Source: Polyangiales bacterium
Lineage (GTDB): Bacteria; Myxococcota_A; Polyangia; Polyangiales; Ga0077539
NCBI GenBank assembly: GCA_044229975.1
Contig: JBGARZ010000003.1
Span: forward strand, 352,001-416,000
DNA length: 64,000 nt
Direction: 5' to 3'
A program made the translations under genes and the position numbers. Below, in pieces: positions 50,590-60,366 of the stretch (positions within the stretch are counted from its first letter, which is position 1; every line of letters begins with the position of its first letter). The notes under the pieces are model-generated. The model was not told the origin of the DNA. It ran no database searches and saw only the letters and a program-made list of their open reading frames with translations.

Positions 50590-50618
<29 letters not shown>
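48909..50618 (+). CDS. FAD-dependent monooxygenase (PheA/TfdB-like)
   Basis: GAGPTG, GCDGAHSTVRK, AGDAAHIHSPVGGQGMNTGIQDAHNLAWKL, LLRPD. Confidence 0.9.
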
Positions 50619-51975
<1,357 letters not shown>

Positions 51976-52069: not shown

Positions 52070-52573
52070 TCACGCGTCTTCCATCGGACGCGCGTTGCCC
52101 TTGAGCGCGTTGAGCAGCGCCTCGGCCTCGAAGCGGTCTTCGGCCGACGGTCGCCCCTTCACGAACCTCTCCAGGTACGCGATGGCCACCGCCTTGCGGC
52201 CCGTCTCGGCGTTGGCCACGCCCAGCAGGTGCAGCGTGTCGTCGTCGTTGGGGCTGATCTCCAGCGCGCGGTCGCCCGCGTCGATGGCCTCCTCGAAGCG
52301 GCCCAGTTCGTACAGGCACCACCCGCGATAGACGTGCGCCCCGAGGTGCTGCGGGTCGCGGTGCACCGCCTCGGAAAACGCCGCCAGCGCCGCGCCCGCC
52401 TTCTCGCGCCGCATCAGCGCGAGGCCCAGGTAGTAGTGCGCGTGCACGTTGCCCTCGTCGGCCAGCAGCACCTCGCGCAGCCCGCGCAGCGCGCCGTCCA
52501 CGTCGTCTTCGTGGAGAAGCTCGATCGACTCCTCGACGGCCGCCCAGCGTGCCTCATCGGTCCGTTGCACCAT
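52070..52573 (-). CDS. Tetratricopeptide repeat protein
   Basis: AHYYLGLAL, AHVYRGWCLYELGRFEEA, TLHLLGVA. Confidence 0.8.
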   Translation of the reverse strand: MVQRTDEARWAAVEESIELLHEDDVDGALRGLREVLLADEGNVHAHYYLGLALMRREKAGAALAAFSEAVHRDPQHLGAHVYRGWCLYELGRFEEAIDAGDRALEISPNDDDTLHLLGVANAETGRKAVAIAYLERFVKGRPSAEDRFEAEALLNALKGNARPMEDA

Positions 52574-52586
52574 CCCTCGTCTCCTC

Positions 52587-53987
52587 TCAGCTCTTGCGCT
52601 CATCGTCGTCGTCGGCCTGCGCCTCGCCCAGCCACCGTTGGATGGTGCGGCGGTCGACCCCGAGCAGCCGGGCCGTGCGCTTCTTGTTGTTGCCCGTGCG
52701 CTCCAGCACCCGGTGCACGTAGGCCATGGTCAGCTCGTCGAGGGTCATCTCGCGCTCGGCCGCGGTCGTCAGGAAGTCCGGCGCCGCGGGGTGCGCGAGC
52801 GACGCCGGCAGATCGTCGGGCGAGACCCACTCCTCGCGGGCCAGGGCCACCGCGCGCTCCACGGCGTTCTCGAGCTCGCGCACGTTTCCGGGCCAGTGAT
52901 AGGCCTCCATCATCCGCAGGGCCGCGCCCGAGAAGCCCCGCAGCGAGCGGCCCGACCGCGCCGCCACCCGCCGCAGGAAGTGCTCCGCCAGCGGCACCAC
53001 GTCCTCGGGCCGATCGCGCAACGGCGGAACCCCGATGTCGATCACCGCGAGCCGGTAGAAGAGGTCGGCCCGGAAGCGCCCGTCGGCCACCGCCTTGCGC
53101 AGGTCGTGGTGCGTCGCGGTGACCACCCGCGCGTCGAAGCGCTCCAGCTTCGTCCCTCCAACGGGACGCACCTCGCGCTCGGCCAGCGCCCGCAGGAGCT
53201 TCGTCTGGAGCGACAGCGGCAGGTCACCGATCTCATCGAGGAAGACCGTTCCGCCCTGCGCCTCGCGCAATAGACCGGGTCGGTCGACCTTGGCGTCGGT
53301 GAAGGCGCCGCGCACCACGCCGAAGAGCTCGCTCTCCAGCAGCGTGTCGGGAATCGCCGCGCAGTTGATCGGGACGAAGGGACCCGCCGACCGCCGGCTC
53401 TCGGCGTGCAGCGCCCGCGCGATGAGCTCCTTGCCGCAGCCGCTCGGCCCCGTGACGAGCACGTTGGCCAGCGTGTCCGCCACGCGCTTCACCAGGTCGG
53501 AGATCTCCGCGAGCGCGTTGCTGCGACCGACCATTCCGCCGACGAGAAAGCGCGCCTCGCCCACCTCGCTGCGCAGCCGACGCACCTCCGAGCGCAGCGC
53601 CGTGGCCTCCAGCGCGCGGTCGACCGCCACGCGCAGCGTCTGCGGCTCGAAGGGCTTGGTCACGAAGTCGTAGGCGCCCAGGCGCAGCGCGCGCACCGCC
53701 GTCTCGATGCTGCCGAAGGCCGTGATGGCGATGACCGACACCCGCGGGTCGAAGGCGCGCACCCGCTCGATGAGCTCGAAGCCGTCCATGCCGACCATGT
53801 TCATGTCGGTGACCACGAGGTCGGGCGCGCGCTCCTCCACCGCCGCCAGCGCCGACGCGCCGTCGTTGAACACCGTCACCTGATGCCCGGCCGCCGTGAG
53901 CAGCTCTTGCAGGAAGGCCGCGAGGTCGGCGTCGTCGTCGACCACGAAGAGGCGCCCGCGCGGGGGCTTCGGCACCGGGTTGGGCAT
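52587..53987 (-). CDS. Sigma-54-dependent response regulator (NtrC family)
   Basis: Receiver VVDDD/TDMNM/KPF; GPSGCGKE, ESELFG, GAFTDA, LDEIGD, WPGNVRELEN; C-terminal Fis-type HTH. Confidence 0.93.
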   Translation of the reverse strand: MPNPVPKPPRGRLFVVDDDADLAAFLQELLTAAGHQVTVFNDGASALAAVEERAPDLVVTDMNMVGMDGFELIERVRAFDPRVSVIAITAFGSIETAVRALRLGAYDFVTKPFEPQTLRVAVDRALEATALRSEVRRLRSEVGEARFLVGGMVGRSNALAEISDLVKRVADTLANVLVTGPSGCGKELIARALHAESRRSAGPFVPINCAAIPDTLLESELFGVVRGAFTDAKVDRPGLLREAQGGTVFLDEIGDLPLSLQTKLLRALAEREVRPVGGTKLERFDARVVTATHHDLRKAVADGRFRADLFYRLAVIDIGVPPLRDRPEDVVPLAEHFLRRVAARSGRSLRGFSGAALRMMEAYHWPGNVRELENAVERAVALAREEWVSPDDLPASLAHPAAPDFLTTAAEREMTLDELTMAYVHRVLERTGNNKKRTARLLGVDRRTIQRWLGEAQADDDDERKS

Positions 53988-53998
53988 GTCAGTGTTCC

Positions 53999-55477
53999 TT
54001 AGGTGGTGACGTGGGAGGGCACGTCGTCGGTCGCGGGCAACCATACCGTGAACAGCGCCCCGGGCAGGTCGCTCGACGCGTCGCCCTGGTCGACCACCAC
54101 GCGCCCACCGAGCGCCTTCACGATGCCTGCGACGACCGCGAGCCCGAGGCCCGTCCCGCCCTCCCCCAGGCGCGTGGAGAAGAACGGATCGAACACCTTG
54201 CCGCGCACGGCCTCGGCGACGCCGGGCCCCGCGTCCTGCACCACGGCCGTCACGCCCGCGTCCGCGCGTCGCACCGCCACGTGTAGCCTTCCCCCCGCGG
54301 GCTGCGCCTGCACCCCATTGAGGCAGAGGTTGAAGAGCACCTGAAACACCTGGTCGCGCGGCGCCCCGACCATGAACCGCCCACCCTCCGGGACGTCCAC
54401 CGTCGCCCGCACCTTCGCGCGACGGCACTCCTGCCCGAGAAACCCGACGACCTCCTTGGCCACCGCGCCGAGGTCGCACTGCGCCACCACGCCCGTCGGC
54501 GTCGGCCGCGTCAGCGAGAGAAACTGCGACATCACCCGCGCGATGCGCTCGCTCTGCGTCGCGATGCTCTGCAAGCTCGCCCGCAGGTCGTCGGGAATGT
54601 CCTCGCGCTCCGCCGCCACGCGCGCCCTCCCGAGGATCACGTTGAGCGGCGACCCGATCTCATGGGCCAGCGTCGCCGCCACCTGGCCGGCCACCGCGAG
54701 CATCTGCGCGCGGTGCAGCTCGACCTCCACCTTCGCCCGCGCGGCCTCCTCGCCCGCGAGGCTCTCCTGCGCGCCCTTGAGCGACCGCGTCAGCGCGTTG
54801 AAGGCATCACCCAGCCGCCGCAGCTCGTCCCTCTCGGCCGTCACCACGGTCTCCAGGTCGCCGCCCGCGACCCGCGTCACGCCGTCGACGAAGCGCTCGA
54901 CGGGCTCGGTCATCGAGCGCGCGATACGCGCCGCGAGCAGCGCCAGCACCGCCGTGAGCACGCCCGCCACGGTGGCGAGCTGGAGTCCCCACGCGCGCAG
55001 CGCGGCGCGCAGGTAGCCGAGGTCGCGCATCACCACCATCGCCCCGATGGGCGTCGCCTGCGACGACCGCACCAGCTCCACCCTCACCAGGATCTCCTGG
55101 CCTCCGAGCACCCGCGTCTGCTGCCGGTCGGTGCGCGCGCGAAAGGCCTCGCGCACCATCTGGCGGAGGGCCAGACGTTGCTGGTTGGCGACCCGCGAGC
55201 CACCGAGCCACTGCCCGTCCGTGTCGTAGATGCCCACTCCGAGCACACCCGTGTCGTGCGTGAGGCGCTCGGCGAGCGCCCGCAGCTCCGACATCGAGAC
55301 GTCCACCGGGAGCGCCGTCATCGCCTCGCCCAGCAGCGTGGCCGTCTCGCGCACCTCGGCCTCGACCTCGACGAGCATCTCCTGCCGGTGGAAGCGCGCT
55401 CCGAGCACGCCGTACACGCCCAGGCACACCACCACGGGGGCGGTGAGCATGAGCCAGTAGCGGTCGACGAGGCGCAT
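53999..55477 (-). CDS. HAMP-domain sensor histidine kinase
   Basis: LAHEIGSPLN, QVLFNLCLNG, DAGPG, FDPFFSTR, GTGLGL. Confidence 0.92.
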   Translation of the reverse strand: MRLVDRYWLMLTAPVVVCLGVYGVLGARFHRQEMLVEVEAEVRETATLLGEAMTALPVDVSMSELRALAERLTHDTGVLGVGIYDTDGQWLGGSRVANQQRLALRQMVREAFRARTDRQQTRVLGGQEILVRVELVRSSQATPIGAMVVMRDLGYLRAALRAWGLQLATVAGVLTAVLALLAARIARSMTEPVERFVDGVTRVAGGDLETVVTAERDELRRLGDAFNALTRSLKGAQESLAGEEAARAKVEVELHRAQMLAVAGQVAATLAHEIGSPLNVILGRARVAAEREDIPDDLRASLQSIATQSERIARVMSQFLSLTRPTPTGVVAQCDLGAVAKEVVGFLGQECRRAKVRATVDVPEGGRFMVGAPRDQVFQVLFNLCLNGVQAQPAGGRLHVAVRRADAGVTAVVQDAGPGVAEAVRGKVFDPFFSTRLGEGGTGLGLAVVAGIVKALGGRVVVDQGDASSDLPGALFTVWLPATDDVPSHVTT

Positions 55478-55526
55478 CGGGTGGTCGCCGTCGTAGCAGA
55501 GACGCGGCCCCGGTGGGGTGCGACGG

Positions 55527-57080
55527 TCAGCGGTGGACGCGGAGCACGTAGCGGAGGCGCACCTGGCTCTCCTTGTAGAGCAGGTACTCCGACTGGGTGA
55601 AGGTGCTCTTGGCGTATTGCGACTGCTTGATGGGCTTGCCCTGCGGGACGACGATCTTCTTGCCGTCGATGGTGATGGTGATGTCGTCCTTGGGGTCGGG
55701 CTCGGTGTGGCCGCGGGCGACGATGCAGTCGAAGCCCTTGGGCGCTTCCTTGAGCGACGAGTCGTCGCGCACGATGGTGTGCTCCTTCCCGAGCGCCGCC
55801 TCCGCCAGGAACATCACGCCCGTGCTGCCGGCCCAGCCCACGTAGTTGACGGACTTGCCGTTCTCCGAGGCGAGGTAGATGCCCTTGCCGACGCGTCCGC
55901 CCGAGTGCGGCATGATGCGCAGGCCCGACCCGAGGATGGCGGCCACCACGGCGACGTTGGTGCCGTGCCAGAGCAGCTTGCGCTCGCCGATGGTGTCGTG
56001 GGCCTTGAACCGGTCGCCCTCACCGTGGCGGTTGAGGCGAAACACATCCACCAGCTTGAGGTTGTAGTAGCTGGCCCCGGTGGCCTGCATGTACTTGAGG
56101 ATCCAGGCGTACTCGTCCGAGGTCGGGTCGATGTACTCGAGGTCGGCCTTGATCTTCTTGTAGTTCTCGTCGGCGGGGTGGGGCACCGCCTCGGGCTCGG
56201 GCCCGGCCGCGGCGGCCTGCTCCATGCTCAACGCGATCTCGATGTCGTTGAGCACGTTGAGCATCTCCACCTTCTTGTGGAGCAGCTCCGGGGTGTTGAT
56301 GGGCGGCGGAATCCGTCGGCCGAAGCTGTGCGGGATGAGCGTGTAGAACTTCGACGAGACCGTGTTGATGAGGTTGGCGTTGTTGGCGTTGATCGCCTGC
56401 TCCAACTCTTCGAGGACGTCGTAGCCCTTCTTCACCTGCGACTTGGAGATCTGCCCGAGGGGCATCTTCTTCACGTCGATGTCGAAGGACGCCATCGCGC
56501 CCTTGAACATGTCCTGGTCGAAGATGAGCTGCATGAAGTTCTGGACGGACTGGTGCAGCGCGCTCGGGAGGAGCTTCTTGGTCACCTTCGGCTGAAGCGA
56601 CGCAGCCGCCTTGTCGATGGCCTTGAGCTTCTCCTCGACCTCGGCGGCCTTCGCGGTGTCGGCCGAGCGCTCGATCTCGATGAGCGCGTACTTGCCCGCC
56701 TTGGCGACGAAGTTCTTGCGGTTCGCCCAGGCGTTGCCGGACTTGTCCTTGAACTTCGACTCGAAGTCCGAGATGGCGCTCGCCGCCGCCGGGTACGGCC
56801 CCTTGAGCGCCGTCTGCCCGACCTCGCCCACGCGCCCCCAGCGGTTCCACGCGTAGAACTTCCCGCCCGACTCCAGCACCTGGATCACATAGAACTTGTT
56901 GTTGTTGGCGCCGATGTTCGTCTGGTTGAGCATGGCGTCGTAGTCCTCGTGGACCGTCGCCTTGCTCTTCAGGGGGCAGTTGTCATCGACCGGGATGTTG
57001 ACCGCTCCTGCCGCGGGCGCGGCCGGGGTCGCAGCCGCCGCAGGGGTCGCCGTCGTCGTCGTCGTCTTCGCCTTCGCCAT
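55527..57080 (-). CDS. PARP3-like ADP-ribosyltransferase (WGR + PARP regulatory + PARP catalytic domains)
   Basis: WGR: LNQTNIGANNNKFYVIQ...WGRVG...FKDKSGNAW; regulatory: KMPLGQISK, FYTLIPHSFG; catalytic: LLWHGT, GKGIYLA, SEYLLY (H-Y-E). Confidence 0.92.
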   Translation of the reverse strand: MAKAKTTTTTATPAAAATPAAPAAGAVNIPVDDNCPLKSKATVHEDYDAMLNQTNIGANNNKFYVIQVLESGGKFYAWNRWGRVGEVGQTALKGPYPAAASAISDFESKFKDKSGNAWANRKNFVAKAGKYALIEIERSADTAKAAEVEEKLKAIDKAAASLQPKVTKKLLPSALHQSVQNFMQLIFDQDMFKGAMASFDIDVKKMPLGQISKSQVKKGYDVLEELEQAINANNANLINTVSSKFYTLIPHSFGRRIPPPINTPELLHKKVEMLNVLNDIEIALSMEQAAAAGPEPEAVPHPADENYKKIKADLEYIDPTSDEYAWILKYMQATGASYYNLKLVDVFRLNRHGEGDRFKAHDTIGERKLLWHGTNVAVVAAILGSGLRIMPHSGGRVGKGIYLASENGKSVNYVGWAGSTGVMFLAEAALGKEHTIVRDDSSLKEAPKGFDCIVARGHTEPDPKDDITITIDGKKIVVPQGKPIKQSQYAKSTFTQSEYLLYKESQVRLRYVLRVHR

Positions 57081-57168
57081 GGCCTCGCCTTTCACTCCGG
57101 CGCGGTCCGTCCACCGCGCACCATTGGGCGTCGGGTTGTACATCCTCCCGCGCCCCGAACGGAACCCG

Positions 57169-58641
57169 CTATGTGCGCGGCCCTCGGCCGCCGACACGCC
57201 ACACCGCGACGAGCCCGACGGAGAGCGCCACCGCCGCCGCCCACCACAGGCCCTTGCCCTGTGACGCAGGCGCCGGGGTCGTCGGAGCCGCCGCCGCGCG
57301 CGCTGTCCCCGCATCCGCGGGCGCCTCTTCGATGGACGGGATGTCGTGCCCCACGGGCGTCGGCGCAGGCGCCGCTGGAGGCGTCGCCGCCGGGCCAGTC
57401 GTATCGACGCCCTCGCAGGTGTGGGCGCAGCGCGCGACGCCACCATCGGGCTGCTGCACGGTGCCGCAGCGATCGTCGGCCAGGCCCCACCGCGCGAGGC
57501 CGCCCGGCGCCGCGAGGTCGACCTGTCGGTTGCCGCACAGGGTGTTGGAGCGCAGCGCCGCCGTCACGCACCGAGCGCCCCGCGCGTATCCGACCCGCGC
57601 CGCCGCACGGCAGTCCTGCGCGAACGACACCACCTGGGCCTGGCTGTTGACCTGTCGGTCGATGGCGAGCTCACGTTCGCCCTCGCGGCGCTTCCACACC
57701 TGGCCCGTCGCGGGACAGGCATAGTTGGGAACGCACCCCGGAATCCCGAGCGCTCCCATCACGTCAGGCCCGCAGTGCCGCAGGTACGCGTCGAAGCGCA
57801 CCTGCGCGGGGCTCCCCTCGGCGCCCGACGGTCGCGCCTCGATGACCGCACCCTGCCTGCGCTCGTCGGCGAGCCAGCTCTCGTGCACGAGGCACCCGCC
57901 GCACCCCGACGAGTAGAGCATCAGCGTCCCGGCGGCGACGCCCGCGGGCGGCGGCGTGCACGAGCAGTCGTCCCACGGCCCGCCCTGCGCGCCGGCCCCC
58001 GTCGCGCGAACGTCCCCGAGCAGCACACCCTGGTCGTTGCCCGACACCGTGTTGCCGATGAACACCGGCATCGCATCGCACGCCGCCACGCCGACACCGC
58101 CGCCCGTGATGTCCGACCGGACGATCACCACACCGGGGTTGGTGATGCCCGACGGCGCCGCGCAGCGACCCGCCTCGTCGGCGCCCAGCGAGACGCCCAC
58201 GCGGTTGCGCGAGAGTGACGCGCGCACGACGCGGAGGTTGCTCGACGCCTCGGCCCGGATGCCGGTTCGGGCGTCGTTGACCACGTCGGCGAAGAGCGTC
58301 GCGCCGCGGGCGTTGGCTACGCGAATGCCGACGCCGCCCTCCTGCACATGGACGTTGCGGACGAGCACGTCGTCGGCCGCCACCTCGACGCCCACGGCCG
58401 CACCACGCAGCGTGTGCCGCATCCCATCGAAGGTCGCGCCCCGGCCCGTGATGCGAATGCAGGTGGTCGCGCGGGTCGCGTCGATGTCGCCGGCGAGCAC
58501 GGCGCTCGCCCCCGCCGTCGCCAGGGCCGTCGTGCACGACTCGCAGGAGTCACACTGCCCACCCGGAACCTGCGCGCCCGCCATCGCGGGCATCGTCGCG
58601 AGCGCGAGGAGGGTGGCGATGAATGCGAGGTGGGCGTTCAT
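57169..58641 (-). CDS. Secreted right-handed beta-helix (NosD/pectin-lyase-like) protein with C-terminal TM anchor
   Basis: Signal peptide; TCIRITG.GATFDG..HTLRG, repeated G[VI].[VL] strands with N ladders; ATG overlaps the purD stop. Confidence 0.7.
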   Translation of the reverse strand: MNAHLAFIATLLALATMPAMAGAQVPGGQCDSCESCTTALATAGASAVLAGDIDATRATTCIRITGRGATFDGMRHTLRGAAVGVEVAADDVLVRNVHVQEGGVGIRVANARGATLFADVVNDARTGIRAEASSNLRVVRASLSRNRVGVSLGADEAGRCAAPSGITNPGVVIVRSDITGGGVGVAACDAMPVFIGNTVSGNDQGVLLGDVRATGAGAQGGPWDDCSCTPPPAGVAAGTLMLYSSGCGGCLVHESWLADERRQGAVIEARPSGAEGSPAQVRFDAYLRHCGPDVMGALGIPGCVPNYACPATGQVWKRREGERELAIDRQVNSQAQVVSFAQDCRAAARVGYARGARCVTAALRSNTLCGNRQVDLAAPGGLARWGLADDRCGTVQQPDGGVARCAHTCEGVDTTGPAATPPAAPAPTPVGHDIPSIEEAPADAGTARAAAAPTTPAPASQGKGLWWAAAVALSVGLVAVWRVGGRGPRT

Positions 58642-59900
58642 GAGGGCTCCCAGGTTCCGACATCGCGGCGGTAGCGACCGCGGGGCCAGTCGATGGTGGC
58701 GACGGCGGCGTAGGCACGGCGCGCGGCCTCGGCGAGCGACGGCGCGAGCGCGACCACGTTGAGCACGCGGCCACCCGACGAGCGCAGCACCCCGGCGTCG
58801 TCGTGAGCGGTCCCGGCGTGGAAGACCTCGACGCCGAGCGCCTTCGCACGCTCGATGCCGCTGATGCGGTCGCCCGTCACGGGTCGGTCGGGGTAGCCCG
58901 GCGCGGTCATCACCACGCAGACCGCGCTGCCCGGTCGCGGCGGCCGCGGGGTCTGTGCAACGGCTCCGCCCGCCACGCCGACGATGGCGTCGAGGAGCCC
59001 TTGCCCCTGAGCCATCATCAACGCCTGACACTCGGGGTCACCGAAGCGCGCGTTGTATTCGAGCAGCATCGGTCCGTCCTTGGTGAGCATCACGCCCGCG
59101 TAGAGCACGCCGCGAAAGGGGCACCCCTCGGACTTCATCGCGTCGACGGTGGGGCCGACGATGGTCGCCATGATCTGCTCGATCAGCGCGGGCGTTTCCA
59201 GCGGGTGCGGGGTGATGGCGCCCATGCCCCCGGTGTTGGGTCCGGTGTTGCCGTCGCCGACGCGCTTGTAGTCCATGGCCGTCGCGTAGAAGCGCGCCGT
59301 GTCGCCGTCGGAGAGCGCGAAGAGGCTCATCTCGGGCCCCACGAGGAAGTCTTCGATCACCACGCTGCGCCCCGCCTCGCCGAAGCGCCCGGCGCGGAGC
59401 GCGTCGTCCACGGCCGCGAGCGCGTCGTCCACGGTCTCGGCGACGGTGACCCCCTTGCCCGCGGCGAGCCCGTCGGCCTTCACCACGACGGGTGCGCCGT
59501 GCGCTCGCACGAAGGCGCTCGCCTCATCGGCGTCGGTGAAGCGACGGTAGGCCGCCGTCGGGATGCCGTACTTCGCGCACAGGTCCTTCAAGAAGCCCTT
59601 GGAGCCCTCCAGGCGGGCGGCCGCCGCGCTCGGGCCGAACACCGGGATACCCAGTGCGGTAAGCCGATCGGCGAGCCCCGCGACGAGCGGCGCCTCGGGG
59701 CCCACCACGACGAGCGACATGCCCTTCGCGAGCGCGACGAGTCCGTCGACGTCGGTCGCCGCGACGGCGACGCAGCGCGCGACCTCGGCGATGCCCGGGT
59801 TGCCCGGCGCCACCACCAGCTCCTGCACCCGCGAGTCCCTGGAGAGCGCCCACGCGAGGGCATGCTCCCGACCACCACCACCGACCAGCAGTACTCTCAC
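58638..59900 (-). CDS. purD: Phosphoribosylamine--glycine ligase
   Basis: GGGGREHAL, VGPEAPL, LEGSK, KADGLAAGKGV, GPNTGGMGA, EYNARFGDPE, GGRVL. Confidence 0.97.
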   Translation of the reverse strand: MRVLLVGGGGREHALAWALSRDSRVQELVVAPGNPGIAEVARCVAVAATDVDGLVALAKGMSLVVVGPEAPLVAGLADRLTALGIPVFGPSAAAARLEGSKGFLKDLCAKYGIPTAAYRRFTDADEASAFVRAHGAPVVVKADGLAAGKGVTVAETVDDALAAVDDALRAGRFGEAGRSVVIEDFLVGPEMSLFALSDGDTARFYATAMDYKRVGDGNTGPNTGGMGAITPHPLETPALIEQIMATIVGPTVDAMKSEGCPFRGVLYAGVMLTKDGPMLLEYNARFGDPECQALMMAQGQGLLDAIVGVAGGAVAQTPRPPRPGSAVCVVMTAPGYPDRPVTGDRISGIERAKALGVEVFHAGTAHDDAGVLRSSGGRVLNVVALAPSLAEAARRAYAAVATIDWPRGRYRRDVGTWEPS

Positions 59901-59988
59901 GGGCCCTCGTTACCACTCTCCCCGCCGCGCGAGAACCGCAGTCTCGCTTGCGACCGCGCGACGACGCGCGCCATCATCGCCCCACCCC

Positions 59989-60366
59989 GTGCGGAACCGA
60001 CCGTCCCCGCTCCCCTTCTGGCTCCTCGCGCTCGCGGCCCTGCTGTTCGTCGCGCCCACCGCGCGCGCGACGCCGCTGCCGCCCACCGTCGCGCTCCTGG
60101 CGCAGCACACCGGCGGCAGCTTCGGGGGCTCCAACTGGGGTGGTGGTTCATCGAGCAGCTCGTCGTCGAGTTCGTCGTCGTCCGGCTCCTACTCCGGCGG
60201 CGGCTCTTCGTCGTCGGGCGGTTCGTCCTCCAACGACGCCGGAGCCATCTGGGCTCTCCTTGAACTCGTCATCTGGTGCTTCTCGGTGAGCCCCGTCCTC
60301 GGCTTCGCCGTGCTCGGTGTCGGCCTCGCCTTCCTGCTGTTCGTCCGCCTCACGAAGAACCGATGA
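59989..60366 (+). CDS. Small membrane protein with Gly/Ser-rich linker
   Basis: Signal-like N-terminus, GGSFGGSNWGGGSSSS..., C-terminal TM; stop overlaps the next ATG. Confidence 0.55.
   Translation: MRNRPSPLPFWLLALAALLFVAPTARATPLPPTVALLAQHTGGSFGGSNWGGGSSSSSSSSSSSSGSYSGGGSSSSGGSSSNDAGAIWALLELVIWCFSVSPVLGFAVLGVGLAFLLFVRLTKNR

Follow-up and report, generated by a model that had tools for sequence, protein, structure and literature searches.

Signalling through PARP1, PARP2 and PARP3 is regarded as a eukaryotic invention built on chromatin, and the PARPs found in bacteria as scattered orphans. In a 64,000-nucleotide stretch of a Polyangiales genome (the window), an earlier note, made from the sequence alone, described a complete eukaryote-like PARP of the PARP3 type. 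The locus raises the question of whether a eukaryotic PARP subfamily is resident in a bacterium, where the gene came from and what it does there.

Bacterial PARPs are known. Gain from eukaryotes has been proposed for 28 three-domain bacterial PARPs (PMC4245714), 72 bacterial PARPs have been catalogued (PMC5966428) and the group has been reviewed (PMC8120803). HaPARP of Herpetosiphon aurantiacus and CdPARP of Clostridioides difficile CD160 make polymer (PMC4245714, PMC5966428, PMC8120803). In the accessible text of the same three papers no PARP of a bacterium is placed in the PARP3 or the PARP4 subfamily, and our literature search, with subscription journals mostly outside its coverage, returned no paper on a PARP3-type bacterial clade, which is apparently undescribed. 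The window protein resembles HaPARP, CdPARP and the PMC5966428 set in being a three-domain H-Y-E enzyme of a bacterium with erasers in the same genome, a likeness that for HaPARP and CdPARP is by description only. The top matches listed in our search include neither of these by name, nor any of the entries for Enhygromyxa, Sandaracinus and Plesiocystis. Plasmid PARPs of Table S1 organisms (Paenibacillus polymyxa SC2, Jeotgalibacillus, Pseudomonas Leaf58; PMC5966428) are only 22–25% identical to the window protein, which in FastTree trees lies far from bacterial PARP types C and D.

Domains and likeness to PARP3

The gene occupies 55527..57080 on the reverse strand and encodes 517 aa; the ORF, Pfam and structure matches identify it as a PARP3-type (clade 1H) ADP-ribosyltransferase. 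An Ala/Thr/Lys-rich N-terminal tail of ~28 aa, modelled with low confidence, precedes three domains, all on the reverse strand: WGR (aa 47–124, 56709..56942; Pfam WGR, E 2e-22), the autoinhibitory helical domain (aa 173–307, 56160..56564; Pfam PARP_reg, E 5e-42) and the ART catalytic domain (aa 321–515, 55536..56120; Pfam PARP, E 1e-47). The triad is encoded on the same strand by codons 55965–55967 (H372), 55875–55877 (Y402) and 55587–55589 (E498), and G373, K409, S410 and Y413 provide the G, K, S and Y of the nicotinamide site. The protein has the features of clade 1, the DNA-dependent PARPs: WGR, helical and ART domains, the H-Y-E triad and the nicotinamide-site residues. The domain order, triad and motifs (LLWHGT, GKGIYLA, QSEY) given in the earlier note are borne out. 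No specific NCBIfam family was matched. A 639-aa longer reading from ATG 57446 was rejected, since it runs into the gene upstream; what 6/6 aligned genus sequences conserve is the start at 57080 with its GGAG-containing leader.

Comparison with solved structures placed the protein with PARP3. The catalytic part scored 392 bits against human PARP3, ~226 against PARP1 and 164–172 against PARP2 catalytic fragments; the score against PARP4 was 64 bits, so the protein is not of the PARP4 family. The WGR domain alone gave the same ranking (PARP3 116 bits, PARP2 81, PARP1 40). With an AlphaFold model built from a 46-sequence alignment (pLDDT 80.2), a structure search ranked five PARP3 entries first, at 51–52% identity compared with 36% for the PARP1 catalytic domain. 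The D-loop (aa 389–397, IMPHSGGRV; 55890..55916, reverse strand) is of the short PARP3 type, with a four-residue gap relative to PARP1 and none relative to PARP3 in the alignment to solved structures, and is identical in 46/46 aligned bacterial sequences. R396 and Q496 stand where PARP1 has Met and Tyr, positions that we take to be the acceptor site and PARP3-like. Human PARP3 (ARTD3, clade 1H) and the window protein thus share the WGR–helical–ART order, a short N-tail, the short D-loop, the H-Y-E triad and a catalytic domain 51–52% identical, and the assignment to PARP3 rather than PARP1/2 that had been made from motif resemblance is confirmed by scores, model and tree alike.

The likeness extends to regulatory residues. 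In the alignment, WGR residues Y64, W81 and R83 correspond to Y83, W101 and R103 of human PARP3, K130-Y131 just C-terminal of WGR to K149-Y150, helical-domain L223 and L274 to L233 and L286, and H372 and E498 to H384 and E514. Y64, W81, R83, Y131, L223, L274, H372, Y402 and E498 are invariant in 46/46 aligned bacterial sequences, as are G373, K409, S410 and Y413. The DNA-dependent activity of human PARP3 is lost in W101A and R103A, its Y150 has been modelled close to the 5′ phosphate (PARP1 has Phe there) and L233A/L286A raise its DNA-independent activity (PMC4081085, PMC4992063). Judged by alignment, the window protein has the WGR and helical residues needed for break activation and autoinhibition in human PARP3.

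The locus and its bacterial host

The window sits in a 686-kb contig of a 10.0-Mb genome of 71% GC. This genome is a bin, 93% complete and 3% contaminated, which is the one circumstance that would favour an assembly chimera or eukaryotic contamination; such an origin of the gene is scarcely credible. The contig is long, and the gene has no introns and host-like codons (GC3 0.967 against a genome median of 0.923; among 3701 long ORFs it ranks at the 98.6th percentile for codon adaptation). The arrangement purD, beta-helix gene, PARP, histidine kinase, sigma54 response regulator, TPR, Ser/Thr kinase repeats in 4/4 long genome loci and in two long metagenome contigs that may be the same species as some of these loci. 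A 9.9-kb contig of a relative, from an independent run, spans 52500–60000 unbroken, and more than 120 bacterial-type relatives were found. Conserved gene order and the independent spanning contig rule out a contaminant or chimera, and the earlier view of a real, high-GC3 bacterial gene holds.

The beta-helix gene upstream (57172..58641, same reverse strand) and the kinase and regulator genes downstream (52587..55477, reverse strand) are syntenic in the genus, the former serving as context only; outside the genus the neighbours differ. Across 6/6 loci the PARP is 89–92% identical (dN 0.04–0.07), compared with ~70% for purD and 74–77% for the kinase, and only prfB (89–91%) is comparably conserved. 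A eukaryotic subfamily is kept here under strong purifying selection across a bacterial family. The gene is nevertheless dispensable: it has been deleted in one genome of the family (G008) and was not found in another (G006). G008 retains the kinase/regulator pair, so the two-component system is probably independent of the PARP, and a functional tie between them is unsupported on this ground and because the neighbours change outside the genus.

About 55 bp before the start, a TGTACAA motif (57135..57142, reverse strand) is kept in 6/6 genus sequences and is possibly a −10-like promoter element; a sigma70 consensus scan upstream of the gene returned no promoters. We examined SOS control by eye and rejected it: no LexA-box-like motif is evident before the PARP gene, though a shared GTTCAG-type motif, which we take to be the SOS (LexA) box, precedes lexA and one recA. 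Contigs of relatives carrying the PARP were present in RNA libraries of 4/4 studies. As evidence of expression this is weak: the runs had been selected with the PARP stretch, and contigs do not prove transcription. As all sequencing-run shares were ≤0.17, no habitat was assigned.

Distribution and origin

A protein search scored 7994 candidates and gave 1733 matches. The best 120 of these are all at least 62% identical, and the organisms named among them are myxobacteria/deltaproteobacteria or planctomycetes; close relatives occur in Myxococcaceae, Myxococcales, Deltaproteobacteria and Polyangiales. Rarity had been stressed at the outset, a description that does not fit the family, where 19/31 genomes carry an orthologue (one partial). 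Elsewhere, orthologues were found in 3/401 genomes of an even phylum sample (all three within the family), in 6/135 genomes of the order of a Kofleriaceae genome and in 1/301 genomes of the class of a Pirellulaceae genome, the one being that genome itself. By these counts and the trees below, the gene is patchily spread outside the family and has moved between phyla. One carrier, Paraliomyxa miuraensis, is cultured; it is described as hard to culture (PMC9960870). Carriage by mobile elements or phages was considered and rejected. IMG/VR held no relatives, by protein query or by the 46-sequence alignment, and among phage (5 records) and plasmid (18 records) sequences only distant or partial matches appeared, none of PARP3 type.

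The PARP3-like family is broad in eukaryotes, spanning amoebozoans, fungi, green algae and animals. A search of 50%-identity representatives returned a wide PARP3-like set with WWE, BRCT, SAP or zinc-finger N-termini (62 of 150 scanned), and the 20 PARP3-like proteins looked up include, among those named, sequences of a green alga, an amoebozoan, a chytrid, a millipede, an amphipod and a clam. Human PARP3 belongs to clade 1H, which is found in all five supergroups then sequenced (PMC2964712).

We built FastTree trees of 229 and 160 rows, and a careful tree (IQ-TREE, LG+C20 PMSF) of 71 rows drawn from the 160: 15 bacterial, 44 PARP3-like and 12 PARP1/2-like. Named animal PARP3s were included, and human PARP3 itself was not a row. 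In the 71-row tree the bacterial PARP3-type proteins form one clade (100/96), which groups with PARP3 apart from PARP1/2 (100/100 and 100/99) and is nested in the PARP3 family below nodes of 100/100, 100/99, 96/96 and 96/87. The last of these four joins the bacteria with two long-branched eukaryotic rows, their nearest eukaryotes. Inside the bacterial clade the first branches are myxobacterial, with planctomycetes nested. Patristic distances average 0.91 among the bacteria and 2.58 among the eukaryotes. Two of the three earliest-branching PARP3-family rows keep PADR1 and BRCT-type domains, one of them also a PARP zinc finger; the PARP3 family therefore arose from a PARP1-like eukaryotic gene.

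Placing all 44 eukaryotic rows together with the bacteria outside lowered lnL by 62 and was rejected (p-AU 0.0059), and eukaryote monophyly occurred in 0/200 bootstrap trees. On a poorer quick tree the bacteria-outside position was not rejected (p 0.102); AU tests on the careful tree, which is better by 24.5 lnL, supersede those on the quick tree. A grouping of the bacteria with six animal rows, chosen after seeing a tree (two source-named, four judged by likeness), was rejected on the careful tree (p-AU 0.029; quick tree p 0.44). The special closeness to animal PARP3 that had been suggested from motif resemblance is lost with this result and with the eukaryote-wide range of the family. An old eukaryote-to-bacterium transfer, the donor probably a non-animal, is the simplest reading of these trees.

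Of the two origins put forward in the earlier note, such a transfer stands as the best reading, and a bacterial sister lineage survives only in a weak form. In that form the bacterial clade would be the sister of the core eukaryotic PARP3s and equally old, having received the gene from a stem eukaryote or given this form to the eukaryotic ancestor. We consider this unlikely. It can draw on the test in which the bacteria are sister to the 41 core eukaryotic rows (lnL 16 lower, p 0.167, not rejected), on the myxobacterial deepest branches with planctomycetes nested, on the presence of PARP3 in all five supergroups (PMC2964712) and on the report of Myxococcota and Planctomycetota as gene donors to LECA (PMC13468126). 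The best tree, however, places the bacteria two supported nodes inside the core; eukaryote-type sequences make up the branch below the core as well as the PARP1/2 outgroup, so that a bacterial donor needs two transfers. Bacterial diversity is also shallow and patchy, and a second bacterial PARP (type B, below) is likewise nested in a eukaryotic family, PARP4, by FastTree only. On present trees the transfer may date from around LECA and may have run either way. Such a date is of interest because of the reported donor role of the two phyla (PMC13468126), and the clade is well suited to testing in which direction genes flowed between Myxococcota and early eukaryotes. After the favoured eukaryote-to-bacterium transfer, the gene would have spread laterally among myxobacteria and into planctomycetes.

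Partner enzymes and predicted role

The window's genome encodes two further WGR–helical–ART PARPs besides the PARP3-type gene (type A). Type B (contig C38, 252555–254000), followed by a macrodomain gene, has PARP4 as its best solved match (150 bits, where PARP1/2 reach ~100), and FastTree nests it within the eukaryotic PARP4 family; unlike that family it has neither VIT nor vWA. The vault PARP/PARP4 family (clade 5) bears on this partner and not on the window protein. Type C (contig C24) is distant from all solved PARPs; it was not found in IMG/VR, and phages yielded only ~22–25% matches. Among the 31 family genomes, 16 have all three PARPs, five have two, one has one and nine have none, and five of the six partial-set genomes are only 64–90% complete. 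One species with two PARPs is on record (PMC4245714), whereas three per genome is the family rule here. Of types A and C, G008 retains no more than 5′ remnants, located at syntenic sites that are unlinked; a search for type B in it found none. Types A and C are unlinked in the window's family. In the Kofleriaceae order, type C lies directly behind the PARP3-type gene in 6/6 carriers, and likewise in six metagenome loci, with a spacing of 0–6 bp where measured; planctomycete PARP3-type loci have no adjoining type C.

The earlier note had seen no PARG or macrodomain eraser in the window. This is correct, as none of the genome-wide eraser matches falls in the 64 kb, but the genome holds erasers elsewhere: six macrodomain, four ARH and one NADAR protein over the cut-off, one partial bacterial-type PARG (PF10021, profile positions 85–146 only) and one PARG-like protein that is divergent and carries QDE instead of QEE. 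Across the 31 family genomes, PF05028 PARG occurs in 18/22 PARP carriers and 0/9 non-carriers. The canonical two-domain PARG is part of this set in five other genera of the family and is absent from the window's genome and genus. Two other candidate partners were rejected: bacterial-type PARG (PF10021) is present in 7/9 PARP-less genomes and does not track the PARPs, and the vault protein MVP is also present in 7/9 and was not found in 8/8 other members of the genus.

The PARP3-type gene is part of a co-inherited, partly eukaryote-derived ADP-ribosylation toolkit, in which its gains and losses are shared by a second PARP of eukaryotic descent and by a eukaryote-type PARG. The pattern stands for few independent events, two or three losses, because the genomes are related and 7/9 non-carriers belong to four genera, perhaps a single lineage. 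A bolder version would have a eukaryote-style ADP-ribose network for breaks (a PARP3-type sensor, PARP4-type and type-C writers and canonical PARG) gained and lost as a unit, with a PARP3 lineage of LECA age that is sister, and possible donor, to the core eukaryotic PARP3s; this seems to us distinctly unlikely.

Taken together, we think it rather probable that the gene is a strongly conserved bacterial resident belonging to the eukaryotic PARP3 family, that a myxobacterium, as seems likely, obtained it in a single event from a microbial eukaryote other than an animal, and that its product is, as predicted, a DNA-break-activated mono-ADP-ribosyltransferase. By analogy with human PARP3, WGR would bind a 5′-phosphorylated nick or end, and this binding would loosen the helical domain and let NAD+ enter. 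The acceptor of one ADP-ribose could then be the enzyme, acidic residues in proteins close by or a terminal DNA phosphate (PMC10789625, PMC5725667), and the genome's own macrodomain, PARG or ARH enzymes would take the group off again. The window protein probably serves to mark or protect DNA breaks routinely, alongside the PARP4-family and type-C PARPs, as suggested by the stable locus, the strong conservation, the five longer proteins (two from named Acidobacteriota) in which an ATP-dependent DNA ligase is fused to the sister type B, and the lack of a PADLOC match. Human PARP3 modifies histone H2B; the window protein differs from it in having a bacterial host and in not grouping with animal sequences. 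No Ku gene was found in the window's genome (93% complete), so Ku end-joining like that of human PARP3 is not evident. The clade makes testable the purpose of break ADP-ribosylation in bacteria and the action of PARP3 without nucleosomes or Ku.

The earlier note had also suggested anti-phage use of NAD+. A conflict enzyme of this kind would sense phage or prey DNA ends and drain NAD+ or block the ends, and the patchy distribution, the movement between phyla, the capping of DNA ends with ADP-ribose by human PARP3 (PMC5725667) and the occurrence of unrelated three-domain PARPs on megaplasmids and phages are consistent with it. DarTG, which ADP-ribosylates DNA against phages, is likewise a bacterial H-Y-E-class transferase, and the window protein could modify DNA too; unlike DarTG it has WGR and helical regulatory domains, no adjacent antitoxin and no PADLOC match (0 families). 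The locus, moreover, is fixed among housekeeping and signalling genes, the PARP is its slowest-evolving gene with only prfB comparable, a mono-transferase would be a weak NAD+ sink, and searches of the viral, phage and plasmid collections yielded no PARP3-type gene. A defence role is improbable on this evidence, and the anti-phage suggestion loses ground to break marking.

The product is a further point of choice. A PARP3-like sequence might still make poly(ADP-ribose), or mainly prime or activate type C, whose polymer the co-occurring PARG would remove; we regard this as doubtful. The intact H-Y-E triad, the canonical two-domain PARG in the family and the position of type C directly behind the gene in the 6/6 Kofleriaceae-order carriers and six metagenome loci agree with such a scheme, as does the reported ability of the human PARP3 regulatory part to act in trans and activate catalytic domains that make polymer (bioRxiv 10.64898/2026.10.17.759577). 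Against it, the window's genus lacks canonical PARG, types A and C are unlinked in the family and the planctomycete loci have no type C beside the PARP3-type gene. Mono- rather than poly-ADP-ribosylation is suggested by the short D-loop (PMC8150716) together with the PARP3-like R396 and Q496 at the presumed acceptor site. Human PARP3, for its part, makes mono-ADP-ribose only (PMC10789625), and PARG also clears mono-ADP-ribose from DNA ends (PMC5725667).

Further bacterial PARP types

Besides the PARP3-type gene in the window, the genome carries two PARP genes of other types. The type-B gene, which encodes a PARP4-family protein with WGR, helical and ART domains, lies together with its downstream neighbours on contig C38 (252555-259067; locus L011), and the gene that follows it encodes a macrodomain protein, a candidate ADP-ribose eraser. 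Type B was found in 20 of the 31 family genomes and in 10 of 301 genomes of the planctomycete class. In five proteins (P0328-P0332) an ATP-dependent DNA ligase is fused ahead of the type-B PARP; two of these five are named as Acidobacteriota/Thermoanaerobaculia. After the macrodomain gene, the C38 interval holds three more reading frames, judged by eye: one for a repeat-like protein of 844 aa, one for a product of 562 aa that has a SWIM-like motif at its end, and one similar to the start of a reverse transcriptase.

The type-C gene is located on contig C24 (120816-122372; L012), and no solved PARP is close to this type. Further type-C loci were collected (L009, L058, L060, L061, L062, L069, L089 and L146-L150). 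Within the window's family, the type-C and PARP3-type genes occupy separate, unlinked sites; in genomes of the Kofleriaceae order, the type-C gene stands immediately 3' of the PARP3-type gene. The same order contains a fourth bacterial type, D (L154, L156, L162). In the relative G008, two unlinked PARP genes have been cut down to 5' remnants (C30, L028; C17, L185).

PARG and macrodomain proteins

Canonical PARG, comprising PARG_cat_N and PARG_cat_C with a QEE motif, is present in five genera of the window's family (for example, L164:988-2253 and L169:982-2220). A divergent PARG-like protein, in which QDE replaces QEE, is encoded on C13 of the window's genome (142585-143631; L045). It occurs in 13 of the 31 family genomes, with one copy partial, and all 13 carry PARP. 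On C23, a C-terminal macrodomain is fused onto a Ser/Thr kinase-like protein (L034:1384-2886).

Other genes of the window and genome

At this locus, the gene at window positions 57172-58641 evolves fastest (60-65%); its product is a Cys-rich beta-helix protein whose N-terminus resembles a signal peptide and whose C-terminus is hydrophobic. A Ser/Thr kinase gene (50590-51975) encodes a C-terminal cyclic-nucleotide-binding domain. The genome has two recA genes (C11:417212 and C36:65314), one of which sits shortly past the end of the window; a GTTCAG-type motif is visible ahead of this recA copy and ahead of lexA. A major vault protein homologue (C36:316246-316578) was found in none of the eight other genus members searched and in 21 of the 31 family genomes.
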